A DNA stretch of 49,713 nt from a phage. Under the pieces are notes generated by a model. That model saw nothing but the letters and a program-made list of their open reading frames with translations, had not been told where the DNA came from and did no database searches. Below are positions 25,702-41,312 of this stretch, one piece after another. Made by a program: the position numbers and the translations under genes. Location of the stretch: sequence record NC_130088.1; one strand, 5' to 3'. The first letter of the stretch is position 1; each line of letters begins with the position of its first letter.

Positions 25702-26628
25702 TTATAATAAGTCACTTGCCTTGTAAAGCCTCCGCTCTATTCCATTTTTGAATTTACCGTTAATTGGTAACATTACGTCTAATTCGCGATCATCAGCAGC
25801 AATCAAAGTATCGCGATCATTAGCATGGCACACAACGCGCATTTTGCGATCACCTTTGTAGCGATACGCTACTATTTCAAGATTCGACGCAGAAAAACAA
25901 GCCCACACCTCTTGTCCAGTTGCCAAGTGGATGTGTTGCGCATCAATCCAATCAACGCAAAGGTAAATTGTTTTGTCAGTCTTGCCAGTTACTGCAACAG
26001 AGCCTCGCGTATAATCCTTAGCGTAAAAACTGCTTTGACCTTCCTCATTGACGAAAAGAATATTACACATATCATCGTCCAATTCATCACTATGCACTAG
26101 GTGGCAAGGAATGGCGTGAATATGTTCGCAATATCCGTTGTCGTGAGTTTTTACGCCAACTTGATACGATTCGCCGCCTAATGGATAAAACGCCTCAAAA
26201 ACGCTTAGATTTGTTATTTCCATGCGTTCAGTTTTATCCATAACCTCAACACATTTTTCATGAGTTGCTTGCGATCCGAAATTGTAACCGGAGTCACGTT
26301 TTGCCGCTTTGTTAGCCTTGTTGACAACCTCAACCGGAACCAGGTTTAACCATTCGCCTAGAGTGTCGATTGCTTCACTGTAATTTTCACCACGTATGCG
26401 CATGAATAATCCGATCCCTGAATCATTCCCGCATTGGTTGCAAATGTTGCCGCCGTCGCCTTTCTCGTTGATTTTGTCCGTCCATCTGAAACGGTCTTTA
26501 CCTCCACAATAAGGGCATGGTTGATGCTTTCCGTTAAAGGTTAATTGAGGAATATCACAAAGTTTCATCAATGCCGCTTGCCACATTCCGCGCATCTTTG
26601 GGATCACTTCTTCTTTCTGGTAATGCAT
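25702..26628 (-). CDS. DNA primase (zinc-ribbon plus TOPRIM-like)
   Basis: CPYCGG..C..C zinc ribbon at N-terminus, acidic DxD-like motifs later; GGAGG SD. Confidence 0.6.
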   Translation of the reverse strand: MHYQKEEVIPKMRGMWQAALMKLCDIPQLTFNGKHQPCPYCGGKDRFRWTDKINEKGDGGNICNQCGNDSGIGLFMRIRGENYSEAIDTLGEWLNLVPVEVVNKANKAAKRDSGYNFGSQATHEKCVEVMDKTERMEITNLSVFEAFYPLGGESYQVGVKTHDNGYCEHIHAIPCHLVHSDELDDDMCNILFVNEEGQSSFYAKDYTRGSVAVTGKTDKTIYLCVDWIDAQHIHLATGQEVWACFSASNLEIVAYRYKGDRKMRVVCHANDRDTLIAADDRELDVMLPINGKFKNGIERRLYKASDLL

Positions 26629-26645
26629 TTCTCAACCTCCAAATA

Positions 26646-26676
26646 AAAAAACCTGGCACGATGATAAACCATGCCA
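26646..26676 (-). terminator. Terminator hairpin (CCTGGCA..TGCCAGG) with T-run on minus strand
   Basis: Dyad plus A7 on plus strand. Confidence 0.55.
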
Positions 26677-26687
26677 GGCCGGAATTT

Positions 26688-27296
26688 TTAGCAATCAGTG
26701 CTATCGACGGAAATCACAACGCGTTTCTTCTGATTGGCTTCCTTTGCTTTGCGCCGTTCTTCTTTCGCCTTATCGCGTTCAGCTTTGCGCCGCGCTTTCT
26801 CCTTCTCGCGTTCTTCTGGACTCATAGACCGCAACGGATCGTAAGGCCGCACAAATCCTCTTGCTTCCGCCTCCTCTTTGGTTACAAATCGCATCAGCTT
26901 TCTGTTGCTGCAACGATTCTCTAATGGCTTGCCGTTATTATCAAATTTGATATCTGGACGGCAATATGAAGCGCGGAAGCCGTTAAAACCTTTGCGTCTG
27001 TAATCTTTCTGGATCAGTTCAGCGCCTTTAGTTGAAATCATGCCGCGCTCTTTCCATCCCCATACTGTTTTAAGGTTAACGCCAATTTCACGCGCCAGGG
27101 CAGCGCAACCGCCATAAGCGCTAACCACTTCATCAAGCCTAGCTTTTAATCCTGCCCTTACTTCTTCCTTTAGTACCAGATAACCGCTAACAGGTGCGCG
27201 GCGCTTCCTGTCTTTACCACGCCTTACGCCGTTGTTACCATTGATTGTGCGTTTGTCGATTTCTCCCGTTGAGGCCGCAATTTTGATTTCGCTCAT
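26688..27296 (-). CDS. HTH DNA-binding protein with basic Lys/Arg/Glu-rich C-terminal tail
   Basis: HTH-like segment GGCAALAREIGVNLKTVWGW; AGGTGA SD; divergent from helicase gene. Confidence 0.45.
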   Translation of the reverse strand: MSEIKIAASTGEIDKRTINGNNGVRRGKDRKRRAPVSGYLVLKEEVRAGLKARLDEVVSAYGGCAALAREIGVNLKTVWGWKERGMISTKGAELIQKDYRRKGFNGFRASYCRPDIKFDNNGKPLENRCSNRKLMRFVTKEEAEARGFVRPYDPLRSMSPEEREKEKARRKAERDKAKEERRKAKEANQKKRVVISVDSTDC

Positions 27297-27307
27297 ATTT
27301 TCACCTA

Positions 27308-27349
27308 TAGCACTTTTTGCTAAAACTATTGAGTAAGTTTGTGTATGAT
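27308..27349 (+). promoter_or_regulatory. Conserved 19-bp box plus TATGAT (class-2 unit) upstream of helicase
   Basis: TAGCACTTTTTGCTAAAAC, 21-nt gap, TATGAT. Confidence 0.5.
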
Positions 27350-27384
27350 ATGGTGCAAATGGCATTTAGTCAAAAGGATAAGTA

Positions 27385-29358
27385 ATGATTCCTAACATTG
27401 AAAAACAGATTGAAGAACTTGGAGCGGAAAAGATAAAGGCAATACAAAAACGCTTCACAGTTGGTGAAATTGTGCCTTACGAATATCAATGCGTTGCATA
27501 CGTTGAGATCGCAAAGCGTTTAAGCCGTTATGAACATCCGTTTTTTGTTAAGGCGGCTGTATCGGCAGGTAAAACAATCATCTTTGCTATGGTTGCGGCT
27601 CAGTGCCGTAAAATGGGGTTGAAAGCGTTATTTCTGGCGCGTCAATCTGAAATTGTGGATCAGGATTCAAAAGAGATTAGCGCCTTTGGTGTTCCGAATT
27701 CCGTTTATTGCGCTGGCCTGAATACCAAAAGCGCTTATTTCCCGATTGTTGTCGGATCGGAAGGCACTGTAATTGGTGGATTGAATAAAGCGTTGGGTGA
27801 TTACGTCCCGCAAGTTTTAGGTATAGACGAATGTCATCAAGTCAACTGGAATGATATTGTTGAAGCCGAGGAAAACGGCGAAAGCATAGAGCAAATGATG
27901 ACACCGAAAGGTGAACCAGTTGAAGGCAATCCGTTGCTGATTGGTTCAGGCCGCGCACAATACACCATTATCATTGCAGAAATGCGCCGCCGTTGTCTTG
28001 AGACTTACGGTCATCAGTTGCGTATATTTGGAATGACCGGATCTGAATATCGCGGAATTGAGCCGATACTTGTCGAAGATAAAAGAATTCCTGGGTTTTG
28101 GCGTGAGCAGATCACAAACATTGATACTGATTACCTGGTAAAATTTGGTTCAGTTGTTCCCACTTATTTTGGCAATGTTGGTGATTTGGGTTACGACTTA
28201 TCAGAATTTACGCCAGTGAATGAATTTGGCGTTGCTGATTATGACCAGAAGCAATTAAAGGCCATGAGTGACAAGATTCACCAATCAGGAACCATGACGC
28301 AGAAAATAATGCAGATGGTTCACGAGGTGATGAAAAACCGCTTGTGCGCTCTTGTTACTTGCGCTGACGAAAGGCACTGCAAAGAGGCGGCGGCGGCGCT
28401 TCCGCCTGGCACGAAATATCACATTATCACCGGAAAAACTGGAGAGAAACAGCGGCGCTTATGGCTTGAGGATGCATATGAAGGGCGCGTTAAATACATC
28501 TTCCAGGTTCAGGCGCTAACAACTGGCGTGAACGTTCCTCCGTGGGATACTTCTGTTATTTTGCGCAAGATCGGAAGCCTGACGCTATTAACTCAGCTTT
28601 TGGGGCGCGGTATGCGTCAATTAAAAACTTACCATAAAGAAGTATTGGGAATGCACAAAACAGATCATCTTGTTTTGGACTTTTCCGGCACGATGTTTGA
28701 AATGGGTAATTTGTATTTCGATCCGATGTTAGAGCAAGCGCAATTCCAGTTACGTAAATCACAGGACAAAGATCCGAAATATTGCCCGATTTGCGGTACA
28801 GAAAATTCATTCTATGCTCGCCGTTGCATTAATGAGGATGAAAACGGAAATCGTTGTGAACATTTCTGGACGTTCCAGGAATGTGAGGATCAGATTGATG
28901 ACCGCACAAAGAAAGTTATTGTAAAAGGTTGCGGCGCAAAAAATGACGTTGCGGCGCGTGTATGCCGTTGCTGTAATGTTCAGTTACGCGATCCAAATGA
29001 TAACTTATCCGGCAAGATGTACCGTAAAAACGATTGGTGCGACGTGTTAGATTTTAATGTGACGCTGACAAAAAACCAGGCTGGCGTAATATTCTGCTAC
29101 ACGTTACGTGATAGTGGCGGCGTAGAATTCAGGGCATACGAAAAATATTTCCCTGAATCAGAACACAAGATATGTAAAACGCTTTGGACAAAGGCGGTTA
29201 GAACACATGTTATAGATCGCCAAGCCGCAAACTTTATGATCACTTGCCGCAATGCAATTAAGATCATGAGTTATGCGGGGCAAATATTGCCGCCAAAACG
29301 TGTTACCCATCGCAAGAACACAAAGAAAGAAGATTTGATCGCACAGAAGGAGTTTTAA
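27385..29358 (+). CDS. SF2 (DEAD/DEAH-like) helicase with C-terminal zinc-ribbon motifs
   Basis: Walker A SAGKT, DECH box, CxxC..CxxC clusters near C-terminus. Confidence 0.75.
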   Translation: MIPNIEKQIEELGAEKIKAIQKRFTVGEIVPYEYQCVAYVEIAKRLSRYEHPFFVKAAVSAGKTIIFAMVAAQCRKMGLKALFLARQSEIVDQDSKEISAFGVPNSVYCAGLNTKSAYFPIVVGSEGTVIGGLNKALGDYVPQVLGIDECHQVNWNDIVEAEENGESIEQMMTPKGEPVEGNPLLIGSGRAQYTIIIAEMRRRCLETYGHQLRIFGMTGSEYRGIEPILVEDKRIPGFWREQITNIDTDYLVKFGSVVPTYFGNVGDLGYDLSEFTPVNEFGVADYDQKQLKAMSDKIHQSGTMTQKIMQMVHEVMKNRLCALVTCADERHCKEAAAALPPGTKYHIITGKTGEKQRRLWLEDAYEGRVKYIFQVQALTTGVNVPPWDTSVILRKIGSLTLLTQLLGRGMRQLKTYHKEVLGMHKTDHLVLDFSGTMFEMGNLYFDPMLEQAQFQLRKSQDKDPKYCPICGTENSFYARRCINEDENGNRCEHFWTFQECEDQIDDRTKKVIVKGCGAKNDVAARVCRCCNVQLRDPNDNLSGKMYRKNDWCDVLDFNVTLTKNQAGVIFCYTLRDSGGVEFRAYEKYFPESEHKICKTLWTKAVRTHVIDRQAANFMITCRNAIKIMSYAGQILPPKRVTHRKNTKKEDLIAQKEF

Positions 29359-29360
29359 AA

Positions 29361-29768
29361 ATGGTTACTGATAAAGGCGATTATCTGGAGTATTACGACA
29401 AATCAGATCCAGATGACAGAAAAGAGGAAGCGCACCAGGTTGATTCTTATTCATGGTTAACATATGAGTTTCCAATGTGGCTTGTTTGGCACACTAAAAA
29501 CGAAGGGAAGAAAACAATAGGCACAGCAGTAAAGGATCAGCAAGCAGGTGTAAAAAAGGGAGTAAGCGACATTCTAATCCTGACTGGTTTTATTGGCTGC
29601 AAATATGCATTCATTGCAATTGAGCTTAAACGAGCCAACAAGAAAGGAACTAAAGTAAGCCAGGAACAAAGGGAATTCTTGCGCCGCGTTAGGGAATGCG
29701 GAGGATTTGCCGCAGTATGCTATGGTGTAGATCAAGTAAAATTGGCTATCGCAGACGCTACAAAATAG
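29361..29768 (+). CDS. VRR-NUC domain nuclease
   Basis: 135 aa; D..IELK PD-(D/E)XK-like core; directly follows helicase. Confidence 0.55.
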   Translation: MVTDKGDYLEYYDKSDPDDRKEEAHQVDSYSWLTYEFPMWLVWHTKNEGKKTIGTAVKDQQAGVKKGVSDILILTGFIGCKYAFIAIELKRANKKGTKVSQEQREFLRRVRECGGFAAVCYGVDQVKLAIADATK

Positions 29769-30119: not shown

Positions 30120-30860
30120 ATGGCTAAGGATTTTCAGGACAAAGCAACCATTGATACTTTTGAGCCGGAAATGGATTTTCATGAACTGCAACACGGCAGA
30201 TATTCAGATATTGCTTTACGTTCAGGCGGTCATTATCAGCCAGTTAGAGAAAACCCATTATTTAAGGTTAGCGGCAACCGTTATGCAGGAAGTAAAACGC
30301 CGGACGTAGTGCGCGACTTGTGGGAAACTCCAGATGAAATTGTTGAATACCTTGCTGAACGTTACGGCAAATATGATCTTGACGCAGCAGCAACGGAAGA
30401 TAATAAAAAATGCGATAAATTTTACAGCAAAGAAACAAACTGCTTAAAGCGTTGGTGGGGTAGCAATAAGCACGTTTGGTTAAATCCACCATACAGCAAT
30501 CCAGATCCATTTATCAAAAAAGCAATTGAGCAGATGGAACACGGAAACCAGATTGATATTTTACTTCCGGCTGATAATTCAACTGCATGGTTTAGTGACG
30601 CACAAAAACACGCGGCAGAAATTATCTGGATTACTGGTGAAACCTGGAAGGATGAAGAAGGTCGCGAATATTCCAGAACTGGTCGAGTAGCGTTTATTTC
30701 TGGCATGACAGGTGAGCCAGTTAGCGGAAACAATAAAGGTAGTGTAATTTTTATCATGCGCCAATTGGAAGAAGGTGAGCAACAGCAAACGCACTATGTG
30801 AAGATTAGCGACATTTGCCCTTCCGTAAAAAATAAACGAGCCAAAGCGCGGAGTATTTAA
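30120..30860 (+). CDS. dam: N6-adenine DNA methyltransferase (phage Dam-type)
   Basis: NPPY motif (LNPPYSN) and overall pattern of phage N6-adenine methyltransferases. Confidence 0.8.
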   Translation: MAKDFQDKATIDTFEPEMDFHELQHGRYSDIALRSGGHYQPVRENPLFKVSGNRYAGSKTPDVVRDLWETPDEIVEYLAERYGKYDLDAAATEDNKKCDKFYSKETNCLKRWWGSNKHVWLNPPYSNPDPFIKKAIEQMEHGNQIDILLPADNSTAWFSDAQKHAAEIIWITGETWKDEEGREYSRTGRVAFISGMTGEPVSGNNKGSVIFIMRQLEEGEQQQTHYVKISDICPSVKNKRAKARSI

Positions 30861-33580: not shown

Positions 33581-33966
33581 AAAGAAAATTACTGGCTATT
33601 ATGATGTGCATTGCTCTTTCTGGTTGTTCAGCTTCAAGCGTGTTACCTGGTCTGATTGGTAGCAAGCCTGATATAACGGCACAGGCTGGAGCGGAGAATG
33701 TGAAACAGACTGTTGGTGTAACCGCAAAGCAGGATACATCAAGCAAGCAGGAAACCACATTCAAAGAATCGGCAGTTGGTCAAGTTGACACATCCAATAA
33801 AAAGCAGGTTAGCACTTCAAGCATTAAGGCAGATAACATCACAGCGGAAAGAATAGAGATCAGAAATAATGATGGTCTTAATGTTCCGGCAATCGCAATG
33901 GGTATATTGATGTTTATTGCTGGTATGCTGGCAGGTTGGACACTAAAACGTAATAAGGCGGCATAA
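33577..33966 (+). CDS. Unimolecular spanin (N-terminal lipoprotein signal plus C-terminal TM helix)
   Basis: Lipobox LSGC at N-terminus and C-terminal TM segment; overlaps endolysin stop. Confidence 0.7.
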
Positions 33967-33981
33967 GCCGCCTTTTCTTTT
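33955..33981. terminator. Bidirectional terminator (AAGGCGGC..GCCGCCTT)
   Basis: Between convergent lysis cassette and leftward operon. Confidence 0.6.
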
Positions 33982-34793: not shown

Positions 34794-36374
34794 TTACCCC
34801 ATTAACGCCGGATTGACATAAACAAATTTACCCACGCTGCAAACATAATTCTTTTCTTCAAGCATTGGCAATAATTGTTCCTCAATTCGTTTCATCACGC
34901 CTGATTGACCTGTAAACGGCTTAACCTTACGCGCACTTTCATAGATAGCTCTTGCATTGGTAACGCCTTTATTTTGACGTGAGATCTTAATGATGATTTC
35001 AATTAACTTGCTCATTTCGGCATCATCGCCAGCGTGACCGGAAGCATTCGCGGCGTTGATATATGTTTTGCTTAATTCGCTGAACATCACCAAAGCCTCT
35101 TGCATTGTCTCAACTTCAATTTCTCGCGACTTTTGCGGCGTACCGTTTGGATTAAACCAATTGCGGATCGTGTGCAATACTGACGCAATGCGGATCACTT
35201 GCTTATCCATTTTACCCAAAGCACCACGCAACATTGTATGTGAATATTTCCCGCCGTCTGCTAAATCTGGCTCTAATTGCTGGCGAGCAATATTAAGAAC
35301 ACGCATTGCAGAACGTGACGGCTTCAATACCACATTTTGTTCAGTCATGATGTTATGAATCAACTGGAAATATTGCGCCTTTAATTCTTTATCAACTGGC
35401 GTGTAATCAAGATCACCATTTTCATCAATAAATACACGCTCTCCTAACATTGTTTTTTCACGTACAAGCAAGAAACGTTCACTAACACCAATACCACGCG
35501 CCCCTGCATCCATTATCCCTTTTATCGTTTCATCCTGGGCAATTACGCTCATGCAGCCCAACGCAACAAAACTCATATTATTTTCAGAGTTGGCGCGAGC
35601 TATTGAAACGTGTCCGGCGTCCCATGCTTTTAGAACCAATTCGCTGTTAGTCTTGCGATCACTGTTAGCGTAAGTCAATCCGAGTAAGCTGTTGATGCTT
35701 GTTGCTTCATCTGAAATGACAGCAAAGTTACCCTGGCGATTGTTGATCTTTGCTAAACCTTCCGGCGTGGTGTCTGATACCGGAAAAACGATATCGCACA
35801 TTTTTTCTAACTTTTCCTCTAATTCCTCCTTTTCCTCAAACAACGCCGCTAACTCAGTGCCGGAACGCTCAGCTTTCAATTCCTTTTCAACGCCTTTTAA
35901 TTTCGCTGCGATCTTCTTTCGCTCTTTCTTGCGTTGTTCGTTGATTCGCTCAACTTCACAGACCATTGGCGCAATAGCCAGGCTGTTGATTGCTGATTTA
36001 CCAGTTGATGGCGGCTGACTGGTTACAACATAAAGAGCCGTTGGTTGTTCAGTGTCGTGGTACTCAACTTGGAAGCGTCCAACCATAGCGGCGGAAACGC
36101 AACCTATGAAATGCATATAGGCCGATGATTCAGGAAATTGAACAGATTGCGCAATGCTACGTGACAGTTTACCCACAACATCAACATCATTACCCAAAGA
36201 GATCACAGGATAACGGTCATTAGCGCCGTTGATATCCTTCACAGGTTCCCAAAAGCTGGACGATTGGCGGTAGCCGTTCGACTGAATAGCAACGCGAAGC
36301 GGCGATGTTCCCTGCGATTCTGCAATGGCTATAACTTGTTGAGGTGTCAATTTGTTGGTGTCAAAGTCAAACAT
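34794..36374 (-). CDS. Large hypothetical protein (526 aa) with P-loop-like PPSTGKS segment
   Basis: AAGGAG SD; first gene after class-2 unit at 36402-36444; function not recognised. Confidence 0.5.
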   Translation of the reverse strand: MFDFDTNKLTPQQVIAIAESQGTSPLRVAIQSNGYRQSSSFWEPVKDINGANDRYPVISLGNDVDVVGKLSRSIAQSVQFPESSAYMHFIGCVSAAMVGRFQVEYHDTEQPTALYVVTSQPPSTGKSAINSLAIAPMVCEVERINEQRKKERKKIAAKLKGVEKELKAERSGTELAALFEEKEELEEKLEKMCDIVFPVSDTTPEGLAKINNRQGNFAVISDEATSINSLLGLTYANSDRKTNSELVLKAWDAGHVSIARANSENNMSFVALGCMSVIAQDETIKGIMDAGARGIGVSERFLLVREKTMLGERVFIDENGDLDYTPVDKELKAQYFQLIHNIMTEQNVVLKPSRSAMRVLNIARQQLEPDLADGGKYSHTMLRGALGKMDKQVIRIASVLHTIRNWFNPNGTPQKSREIEVETMQEALVMFSELSKTYINAANASGHAGDDAEMSKLIEIIIKISRQNKGVTNARAIYESARKVKPFTGQSGVMKRIEEQLLPMLEEKNYVCSVGKFVYVNPALMG

Positions 36375-36401
36375 CTAAAAATCTCCTTCTTGTTGCCGCT
36401 A

Positions 36402-36444
36402 ATTATAACGGCAACATTCTACAGCCTTTTAGCAATTCGTGCTA
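36402..36444 (-). promoter_or_regulatory. Conserved 19-bp box plus TATAAT (class-2 unit, minus strand)
   Basis: Box contains the TAG stop of the upstream gene. Confidence 0.5.
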
Positions 36445-37081: not shown

Positions 37082-37124
37082 ATTATGCCGGATACGTGAT
37101 CCGGCGTTTTAACAAAAAGTGCTA
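37082..37124 (-). promoter_or_regulatory. Conserved 19-bp box plus hairpin plus CATAAT (class-2 unit, minus strand)
   Basis: GCCGGAT..ATCCGGC hairpin in spacer. Confidence 0.5.
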
Positions 37125-37817
37125 TTTCTGATTTGCCAGGCATACAGCAAGCGCAAAGCCGCGCGGAGTGAGTGAGCGGATCAGCTTTGTTCGCTTAGAC
37201 TTGCCGCCGAGCTTTTGCCAGCCTGGATTGTTGTTCCCTGTTGGCAATACTGCGTTTGTATCCGGCATTACAAAGCCGTTACCCGTCCAAAGACAAGTTT
37301 TTTTGGTGTACGCATCGCGAGCGGGAATGATTTCAGGAAAGTGAGGATGTTTATCATCTTCCGGCAACAGACCTCCAAACGCGCAAGGATGAAAGATAAA
37401 ATCAGGTTGCCGCCACATTGACGACAGAACACTAACAGGATTCTCAATCATATATGGAACGTTAAACCGATCCGCAATATTGGCAGCAATCTTTGCCGTT
37501 TCAACCGCCTTTTTCTGGAAGTCTGGATCACGTTCACGCTTTGCTGCAAAGTGACGCGATCCGCTAACAGCTAAATCAGTGCATGGAGGGAATGCAATAA
37601 TAAAATCTGGAGTGCCAAAGACGCGCATCATTGCGTTATGCTGGAATGATAATCCGATCCACTCATTCAAATAAACGATGTTGGGATGAGTCACGCGCAC
37701 TGATTGGTAATCACCATGATCAGCACCGTCGAAATTAAAGCACAGCACTTTGTGACCACGTTCAGCCCACGGCAACGCAGCATAACCAGAACCATCAAAT
37801 AGTGAGAAAATAAGCAT
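37122..37817 (-). CDS. Putative DNA cytosine-5 methyltransferase-like protein
   Basis: FDGSG (motif I-like), FPPC (PC catalytic motif-like), ENP (ENV-like); start set at internal ATG with AAAGGA SD; unusually short for this family. Confidence 0.4.
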   Translation of the reverse strand: MLIFSLFDGSGYAALPWAERGHKVLCFNFDGADHGDYQSVRVTHPNIVYLNEWIGLSFQHNAMMRVFGTPDFIIAFPPCTDLAVSGSRHFAAKRERDPDFQKKAVETAKIAANIADRFNVPYMIENPVSVLSSMWRQPDFIFHPCAFGGLLPEDDKHPHFPEIIPARDAYTKKTCLWTGNGFVMPDTNAVLPTGNNNPGWQKLGGKSKRTKLIRSLTPRGFALAVCLANQK

Positions 37818-38015
37818 GTTTAAATCCTTTCTGTATGACCTTGTAAGGCGTTTTGTTTGTAGGTGTGACAATCGTATTAGTTACGGCCTGAAATCGCGAC
37901 ATAATGCGAAACAGGCCGCTATTTTTTACTTACAGAATGGGCATGTTGTTTTATCACCGCTTCCGCCGTGTTTTGGACAGCAAATTTTTTCGATAGGTGT
38001 CATTTTAAATACTCC

Positions 38016-40561: not shown

Positions 40562-40604
40562 ATCATAGCAATTCGTGACTGATTGGTTTTAACAAAAAGT
40601 GCTA
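40562..40604 (-). promoter_or_regulatory. Conserved 19-bp box plus TATGAT (class-2 unit, minus strand), first unit of the leftward operon
   Basis: Box/gap/-10, CATCGAAAC leader. Confidence 0.5.
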
Positions 40605-40613
40605 TTCATGCAG

Positions 40614-40643
40614 TAGACCGATTGGTCTAGACCGTTTGGTCTA
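40614..40643. promoter_or_regulatory. Operator-like composite palindrome TAGACC-gatt-GGTCTAGACC-gttt-GGTCTA
   Basis: Three GGTCTA half-sites in alternating orientation; a fourth GGTCTA at about 41086. Confidence 0.4.
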
Positions 40644-40700
40644 ATGAACGCATCGTTTTGTGTATCGAACGCATTCATGATCCTGTTACGTGATCGTTAT

Positions 40701-40781
40701 ATGATCAGATGATGATTGATGTGTGAGATTTTGTGATTGAAATTGATTTGATTTGATTAGATTTGAGTAGTGAGTGAGTAG
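40701..40781. repeat. Iteron-like array of short direct repeats (GATT / TGATTGA / GTGAGT units) in AT-rich DNA
   Basis: Direct reading; no ORF. Confidence 0.5.
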
Positions 40782-41247
40782 AAATAATCACACCTTGCCG
40801 ATCAGTGAAAACTTTTCCCGCAAAACATCACTCCAGGCTACGCGCTGTTATCTTCCGTTCATGGGTGTTCACAAATCTATCCGGCGTAGTTCTCCGACGG
40901 TTCTATGTGTTAGCCACACAAAAAGAACAAAATAAAACTCTATATAATAATAATTAAAACAGTAAGTTATCTATATATATGTATTTATTTGTTTCTATAC
41001 TGTTTCTAATGTTCCATATGGTTAGTGGTGGGTGATATATTGTTGATGGTGGTATTTGGTTAATATTTAGCCTATTGCGCCTGGTCTAGTGGTGGATTGA
41101 GAAAAATATATTTATATATAGGAATCCGCGAAAATTCATGAACGTATGAACAGCCAAAGAACGCGTTTTCAATTTCAAGTAAAACATTCACTTACGCTGA
41201 AAATTTGTTCCACTATAGGTATGGAACGTAAGCACACAAAAAACTAC

Positions 41248-41276
41248 TTGACGAGAACAAATGGCGGCGATAATAT
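41248..41276 (+). promoter_or_regulatory. Sigma70-like promoter TTGACG-17-TAATAT (early promoter B)
   Basis: Hexamers read directly; leader and SD paralogous to promoter A. Confidence 0.65.
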
Positions 41277-41312
41277 GCCACAACGAACTAACCAACAGGA
41301 GGATAACCAATC

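Follow-up and report, generated by a model that had tools for sequence, protein, structure and literature searches.

Gene gp44 of Citrobacter phage vB_CfrD_Devorator (Drexlerviridae, Tempevirinae, genus Tlsvirus; record OL539461.1) encodes a DUF3987-family protein with an MCM-like AAA+ fold, and both assignments are nearly certain. We consider it probable that this protein is the ring-shaped (hexameric) replicative helicase of the phage, partnering its primase gp28 and DNA polymerase III of the host. The family is already known: its helicase function was predicted in 2016, and was shown biochemically for one member in 2025.

The 2016 study by Kazlauskas et al. assigned the DUF3987 proteins of phages to the SF6 helicases, as divergent members with a distant relationship to MCM, and proposed that they are replicative helicases; it noted their association with primases and their C-terminal wHTH, and reported an HHsearch tie to MCM for another DUF3987 protein (PMC4889955). 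Typically the domain is fused to, or encoded beside, primases of the AEP or DnaG type (PMC4889955; PMC5862659). A 2018 survey of AEPs counted it with the ATPase domains found beside primases in place of MCM, RepA or DnaB (PMC5862659). The member studied in 2025, AgaPH (PriCT-DUF3987), comes from a pAgo-associated mobile element of Seonamhaeicola sp. [quoted passage not shown]

The gene and its homologues

The window is the whole stretch of phage DNA that was analysed, 49,713 nucleotides (NC_130088.1); its positions equal those of OL539461.1 plus 7. The features discussed here are collected in Table 1. The 526-aa ORF that an earlier note had read from the DNA letters is present, with an ATG start and the Shine-Dalgarno sequence AAGGAG, and by megablast it is 100% identical to DEVORATOR_44 of OL539461.1. 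It is annotated there as ‘hypothetical protein / DUF3987’ and is the longest CDS with a hypothetical label in the deposited record. Near-identical genes in other records, RefSeq included, carry the label ‘DNA helicase’ or ‘putative helicase’, and the homologue in TLS (99.8% identity) is labelled ‘yfiJ: putative ATPase’.

Searching with tblastn found homologues in 919 phage records, and in 899 of these the match is nearly full length. T1 (58.6% identity) and TLS are among these phages, as are many phages of Klebsiella, Escherichia, Salmonella and Shigella, with genomes of ∼45–52 kb like that of Devorator. Having 899 full-length phage homologues, gp44 is therefore not a chance ORF; its distribution is, in our reading, that of a T1-like core gene conserved across Drexlerviridae.

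Table 1. Features of gp44, of its flanks and of the replication genes of Devorator (window positions; aa, gp44 residues)
Feature	Position	Strand	Description
gp28 primase	25702..26607	-	T7-gp4-type zinc ribbon, without the helicase half; Pfam Zn_Ribbon_Prim, E=1.4e-13
gp30 SF2 helicase (ResIII + Helicase_C)	27385..29358	+	The other helicase; belongs to the conserved replication module
Terminator-like bidirectional hairpin	33955..33974	both	Stem of 8 bp, 6 of them GC; at the 3′ end of the leftward block
gp44 CDS	34794..36374	-	ATG start, 526 aa plus stop; DUF3987-family AAA+ (MCM-like, SF6), predicted helicase
C-terminal helical and winged-helix domain, aa 421-526	34797..35114	-	From the AlphaFold2 model
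AAA+ ATPase core, aa 81-415	35130..36134	-	Alpha/beta, MCM-like
Lid/sensor-2 region HTMLRGALGKMDKQVIRIASVLH, aa 379-401	35172..35240	-	Helices 380-387 and 389-405; putative role
GVSERFLL, aa 296-303	35466..35489	-	Candidate arginine finger; G296 and R300 invariant, E299 in 132/140
Sensor-1 strand GCMSVIAQDE, aa 273-282	35529..35558	-	Strand 273-279; putative assignment
Beta-hairpin before the sensor-1 strand, aa 255-270	35565..35612	-	Strands 255-258 and 267-270, invariant R260 between them
Walker B strand FAVISDE, aa 217-223	35706..35726	-	E223 invariant; position 222 is D/A/S in the family, Asp in gp44
Lys/Glu-rich antiparallel helical hairpin, aa 128-192	35799..35993	-	Inserted after the P-loop helix; helices 126-168 and 172-191
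Walker A/P-loop QPPSTGKS, aa 120-127	35994..36017	-	K126 invariant; Q120, P121, G125 and S127 at least 90% conserved
N-terminal small helical domain, aa 1-80	36135..36374	-	Helices 11-21, 25-33, 36-41 and 66-78 (AlphaFold2)
Shine-Dalgarno AAGGAG of gp44	36383..36388	-	Strong; 8 nt 5′ of the ATG; read directly from the sequence

Family assignment

Residues 81-432 of gp44 match the Pfam profile PF13148 (DUF3987) over positions 3-352 of its 364, with E=1.1e-42 and 147 bits, where the curated cut-off of the profile is 27 bits. The PHROG family 2373, ‘DNA helicase’, aligns end to end with the protein (E=2.8e-252), and PHROG 7327 matches its C-terminal 86 residues. The earlier note had called the protein one of unknown function and had proposed a profile search as the check on that reading; the search gives DUF3987 and ‘DNA helicase’, and the label has to be dropped. 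An exhaustive search of a library of representatives at 50% identity yielded 2356 relatives at E<=0.001. Among those listed, many are stand-alone proteins of 500–560 residues, and others have 750–970 residues with DUF3987 at the C-terminus.

Other searches returned nothing of this kind. The NCBIfam search gave nothing meaningful, and the Pfam scan of gp44 contained neither MCM (PF00493) at E<=1 nor DnaB_C, the RecA-fold motor. PDB sequences were searched both with gp44 itself and with a family profile of 112 sequences, at E<=10, reaching no MCM chain and no solved relative. Because these searches did not reach MCM, the MCM link of gp44 derives from its predicted structure. The PDB matches that did appear, to coiled coils and to TALE repeats (residues 7-30, LTPQQVIAIA, E=5.8–8), were dismissed as chance.

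Predicted structure

The AlphaFold2 model of gp44, built with 43 homologues in the alignment, is confident (pLDDT 89.4, pTM 0.87). The core has the MCM-type AAA+ fold; its structural neighbours are AAA+ proteins, and those found in BFVD include primase-polymerase fusions. The N-terminal 80 residues form neither an OB fold nor a beta-barrel nor a zinc tier in the model and have no Pfam match; in a relative in which a primase domain is fused to the ATPase (P0133, described below) the N-terminal region is kept between the two, the match covering query residues 13-523. Inserted in the ATPase core is a charged helical hairpin, modelled with block-mean pLDDT values of 88–97. This is the central Lys/Glu-rich coiled coil of the earlier note, which is borne out both by composition (Lys and Glu make up 26 of the 53 residues 140-192) and by the two long helices of the model.

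Within the MCM group, the chains of replicative MCM2-7 and of archaeal MCM equal or exceed those of MCM8/9 in score against the gp44 model. These scores speak against the idea that gp44 is a recombination or repair motor, acting in branch migration or strand exchange in the manner of ComM or MCM8/9 and aiding the recombination-dependent concatemers of T1-like phages instead of origin-dependent replication. The idea is also opposed by the fusions and synteny of the family, which involve primases and the DnaB N-terminal domain, not recombinases, and we regard it as quite improbable.

Conserved motifs

Conservation was assessed in two sets that reach down to ∼25% identity, 140 relatives in our own alignment and 112 diverse relatives in a second one (A2). 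Six residues, K126, E223, R260, G296, R300 and K388, are invariant in these 112–140 relatives, and Q120, P121, T203, E205, Q280, E299 and E306 are nearly so. The P-loop-like PPSTGKS that had been noticed from the letters is residues 121-127 and falls in Walker A, the first position of which is Gln, not Gly or Ala, throughout the family. The spacing between Walker A and Walker B ranges from 61 to 99 residues in the 140 relatives, with a median of 91; the Lys/Glu hairpin is therefore a family trait and not peculiar to Devorator. A279 is conserved in 130 and Q280 in 139 of the 140 sequences. In the lid region Lys388 is invariant, and Arg383 is found in 103 of the 140.

Roles were given to these residues by combining the secondary structure of the AlphaFold2 model with the motifs of MCM. 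We take K126 to be the lysine of Walker A and E223 the catalytic glutamate of Walker B; Q280 would be sensor 1, and R383 together with K388 sensor 2. The hairpin that carries R260 presumably corresponds to the pre-sensor-1 hairpin of MCM, which would make it a candidate DNA-binding pore loop, and R300 in ‘SERF’ is read, on our assumption, as an arginine finger like that in the ‘SRFD’ of MCM. All the conserved motif residues are intact in gp44, and the protein should therefore be an active ATPase, as predicted from its sequence.

The leftward gene block

The leftward block runs on the minus strand from ∼40566 down to 33980 and comprises 17 CDS, gp57 to gp41. The earlier note had placed gp44 at the head of this operon; it is the 14th of the 17 genes, and a promoter scan of the 67-nt gap before it found no minus-strand sigma-70-like site. 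At the upstream edge of the block, ∼4 kb upstream of gp44, lies a 746-bp non-coding divergent region (40567-41312), the sole long non-coding region that could be a candidate for the promoter of the block. The scan for internal promoters also showed a TATAAT upstream of gp44, inside a hairpin loop and without a usable -35.

gp44 is surrounded by small genes of the early type and lies outside the cluster of primase, helicase and recombination genes. Its neighbours gp41-43, gp45 and gp46 have only PHROG matches of unknown function, in keeping with the earlier description. The methyltransferase-like gene named in the same description, gp47 (37122-37871), matches PHROG 757 ‘DNA methyltransferase’ and has no Pfam match; it is near gp44, three genes upstream, not adjacent to it.

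Such a setting, among small early-type genes and three genes from gp47, can be cited in favour of an anti-restriction, anti-defence or host-takeover ATPase, and the earlier note had implied a link to restriction evasion. None of the defence and anti-defence families of PADLOC-DB matches gp44 at E<=1, and in relatives the context of the gene is replication and recombination. A very large family, with some members fused to primase or DnaB N-terminal domains, keeps all the catalytic AAA+ motifs, and gp44 is a core gene across Drexlerviridae, unlike typical accessory anti-defence genes. On this evidence a role in defence evasion or takeover is very improbable indeed, and the implied link is not sustained.

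Primases in the genome, in neighbouring genes and in fusions

No DNA polymerase and no DnaB-type helicase is annotated in the Devorator genome. Its primase, gp28, aligns to only positions 19-340 of the 667 of PHROG 510 ‘DNA primase’ and is without a helicase half. From these two facts together, the missing polymerase and DnaB-type helicase and the primase that has no helicase half, we infer that gp44 is the replicative helicase. The re-annotation of TLS (2024) likewise lists no polymerase or DnaB; it names the primase, gives the SF2 protein as the only replication helicase, and leaves the DUF3987 gene hypothetical and without discussion.

gp28 and gp44 are on the same strand and ∼9.8 kb apart. 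In relatives at 35–38% identity the DUF3987 gene lies within 0–2 genes of a primase homologue and an SF2 helicase. Two of these loci (L004 and L006) share the order DUF3987, primase homologue, SF2 helicase, gp31-like nuclease, and recombination and SSB genes; their primase homologues match gp28 with E=1e-10 and 3e-14, respectively. In L004 one small gene separates DUF3987 from the primase homologue, and the SF2 helicase is 32% identical to gp30 (E=1e-83). In another locus (L003) the SF2 helicase directly follows DUF3987. In a further one (L002), that of Salmonella phage STGO-35-1, the primase is near, the order being DUF3987, two small genes, a primase and an SF2 helicase of the DEAD-box type. 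Across the relatives no small gene that might encode a partner or loader is conserved on the flanks of DUF3987; only the gp31 nuclease, beside the SF2 helicase, is conserved.

Ten long relatives of gp44 were scanned for fusions. One (P0133) has an N-terminal DnaG CHC2 zinc finger fused to DUF3987 and over residues 13-523 shares 35% identity with gp44; a second (P0228) is a fusion of PriCT-2 to DUF3987; in a third (P0195) DUF3987 is preceded by a DnaB N-terminal domain. The earlier impression that gp44 resembles proteins found beside primases is right at the level of the family, as literature, synteny and fusions agree, and does not extend to Devorator, where the primase is remote.

A rival reading makes gp44 a replication initiator, that is, an origin-melting organizer of the primosome whose winged helix finds and opens the origin and which then recruits gp28, leaving the fork to gp30 or host DnaB. 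Initiator-helicases of the SaPI Rep, Cch and P4 alpha type would be its models. We think this unlikely for gp44, on three grounds. In DnaB the RecA-type motor is C-terminal to the DnaB N-terminal domain, and in P0195 it is DUF3987 that occupies the place of the motor. When gp44 and its surroundings were scanned for iterons or an origin, only short matches in two copies came up, no better than chance, so that no iteron-like repeats above chance lie in or beside the gene, and the TLS study found none either. Finally, AgaPH, the characterized member of the family, is a processive-type 5′-3′ helicase acting on forks (PMC11724360). The roles of initiator and of fork helicase are compatible.

Comparison with known systems

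AgaPH was compared with gp44 by its published description. The two proteins share DUF3987, a Walker A motif with variation, a Walker B motif, a small C-terminal domain and a link to primase. AgaPH has an N-terminal PriCT, and its AEP primase-polymerase partner is encoded immediately upstream, whereas the N-terminus of gp44 consists of 80 helical residues without an assigned domain, and a primase of the DnaG/T7 type ∼9.8 kb away is presumed to be its partner.

With MCM proteins (archaeal MCM, MCM2-7, MCM8/9) gp44 has the core fold in common but no sequence match. It lacks their N-terminal OB-fold/zinc tier, carries a 65-residue Lys/Glu-rich hairpin inserted after the P-loop helix, and begins its Walker A with Gln. 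As to polarity, MCM moves 3′-5′, whereas AgaPH, the one DUF3987 member for which it has been measured, unwinds 5′-3′.

Cch (SCCmec, DUF927), Pri-Rep of SaPI5 and ATPases of the VirE type belong to other Pfam families, and their structural scores against gp44 are clearly below those of MCM. These proteins are origin-binding initiators with known iterons; none were found at gp44. The SF4 helicases T7 gp4 and DnaB have the same job that we propose for gp44, that of a ring helicase to which a zinc-ribbon/Toprim primase is coupled, and the primase half of T7-type primase-helicases is homologous to gp28. Their motor has the RecA fold, in contrast to the AAA+ motor of gp44.

The literature was also searched for defence-escape mutations in the Drexlerviridae helicase; the top paper, on Druantia and Zorya, deals with structural proteins of T3 and Bas37 and has no bearing on gp44. 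A paper on Avs (Nature, 2026) was set aside as not applicable to gp44, since RecA-type primase-helicases are sensed there, not DUF3987.

Proposed role of gp44

As the replicative helicase, gp44 would form a ring on phage DNA that is probably hexameric. The QPPSTGKS P-loop would hold the ATP, Glu223 would serve in its hydrolysis, and the adjoining subunit would contribute Arg300 as arginine finger. Single-stranded DNA would be drawn through the pore of the ring by the beta-hairpin that carries Arg260, and the replication fork of the phage would thereby be unwound. Contacts with DNA or with partners may be made by the winged helix at the C-terminus and the helical domain at the N-terminus, and the ring would work together with primase gp28 and host DNA polymerase III.

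Our confidence in this function is moderate, because gp44 lies off the primase cluster, because the genome encodes a second helicase, gp30, which counts against a fork-helicase role, and because our search of the literature found no experimental work on any T1-like gp44 homologue. According to the classical T1 literature, the synthesis of T1 DNA depends on several elongation functions of the host. If host DnaB were among them, a fork helicase of the phage's own would be less necessary.

A bolder version, which we advance tentatively, is that T1-like phages assemble a hybrid replisome. The MCM-fold AAA+ ring of gp44 would replace DnaB, move 5′-3′ as DnaB does and MCM does not, and be coupled directly both to host Pol III and to a zinc-ribbon/Toprim primase of the bacterial type. 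The family-specific Lys/Glu hairpin might then be a collar that makes up for the missing N-terminal tier of MCM, or a dock for the primase.

Significance

As a discovery gp44 has little value: it is already tagged DUF3987 in GenBank, and near-identical RefSeq genes are labelled ‘DNA helicase’. Annotation could nevertheless be harmonized, for many Drexlerviridae records list the homologue as hypothetical and only the SF2 protein as a helicase. The DUF3987 family has several oddities, namely Gln at the start of the P-loop, a Walker B Asp that varies and a long insertion of charged helices, and sequence search finds no solved structure for it; the T1 or TLS homologue is therefore a convenient E. 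coli model. Work on that homologue could reveal how a motor of the MCM type cooperates with a bacterial primase and polymerase. The hybrid replisome, if true, would be directly testable in a tractable E. coli phage such as T1 or TLS.

Motif variation in the DUF3987 family

The Walker B aspartate position of the MCM-like helicase gp44 is variable across the DUF3987 family, with Asp, Ala and Ser occupying it in 54, 46 and 34, respectively, of the 140 aligned relatives. In the family alignments the Glu that follows never varies, Gln opens the P-loop in almost every sequence, and T203 and E205 of the TPE motif are nearly invariant; these last two residues might compensate in Mg2+ coordination.

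Elements of the surrounding genome

Features accompanying gp44 in the phage genome.
Feature	Window position	Strand	Description
Primase/SF2 helicase locus	25702-29768		gp28, gp30, gp31
Dam-type N6-adenine methyltransferase	30120-30860		separate from gp47, same phage
gp44 C-terminal winged-helix part	34797-35087		residues 430-526; second PHROG match, 7327
Hairpin GTTGCCG-N10-CGGCAAC	36392-36415	-	perfect 7-bp stem
gp47	37122-37871	-	249 aa, TTG start; PHROG 757 'DNA methyltransferase', E=1.7e-87
Non-coding region	40567-41312		746 bp, separating the divergent gp57 (leftward) and gp58 (rightward) blocks
GACTGATTGGT	40577		in non-coding region; related to the 14-nt boxes
TAGACCGATTGGTC / TAGACCGTTTGGTC	40614-40641		in non-coding region; tandem 14-nt palindromic boxes
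21-nt tandem copies	40633-40674		in non-coding region; two copies
TATATA tract	~40920-41120		in non-coding region, beyond tandem copies; AT-rich

The hairpin lies in a 67-nt gap, immediately upstream of the gp44 ribosome-binding site, and carries TATAAT in its loop on the - strand. The element might influence the stability or processing of the RNA, act as a weak attenuator, or belong to an unconventional internal promoter. The intergenic region between the divergent blocks has the appearance of a cluster of operators or of a candidate origin of replication.

The gp28 primase is of the T7-gp4 type without the helicase half, and its gene and that of the SF2 helicase gp30 are divergently oriented; gp30 and the small nuclease gp31 form a conserved pair, present in all distant relatives examined. 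For gp47, a search against Pfam matched no family. By eye it contains FSLFDGSG and PPC, which recall motifs I and IV of C5-cytosine methyltransferases, and the protein is unusually short.

Distribution among phages

In the phage database, a T1-like helicase gene with ∼79% protein identity to the enterobacterial gp44 also occurs in 14-21 records that bear the name 'Campylobacter phage', among them A13a (MG065679, 47 kb); the host was probably mis-attributed in these records, or they stem from contaminating coliphages. The winged-helix part of gp44 has matches of its own: PHROG 7327 is a separate PHROG of unknown function, and, among phage records H36-H41 and H70, several Rtp-like phages have a second partial match and Klebsiella phage KL has the winged-helix match alone, in an unannotated stretch with 43% identity over residues 430-525. 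This pattern suggests that the winged-helix domain is also passed around among phages as a gene in its own right.
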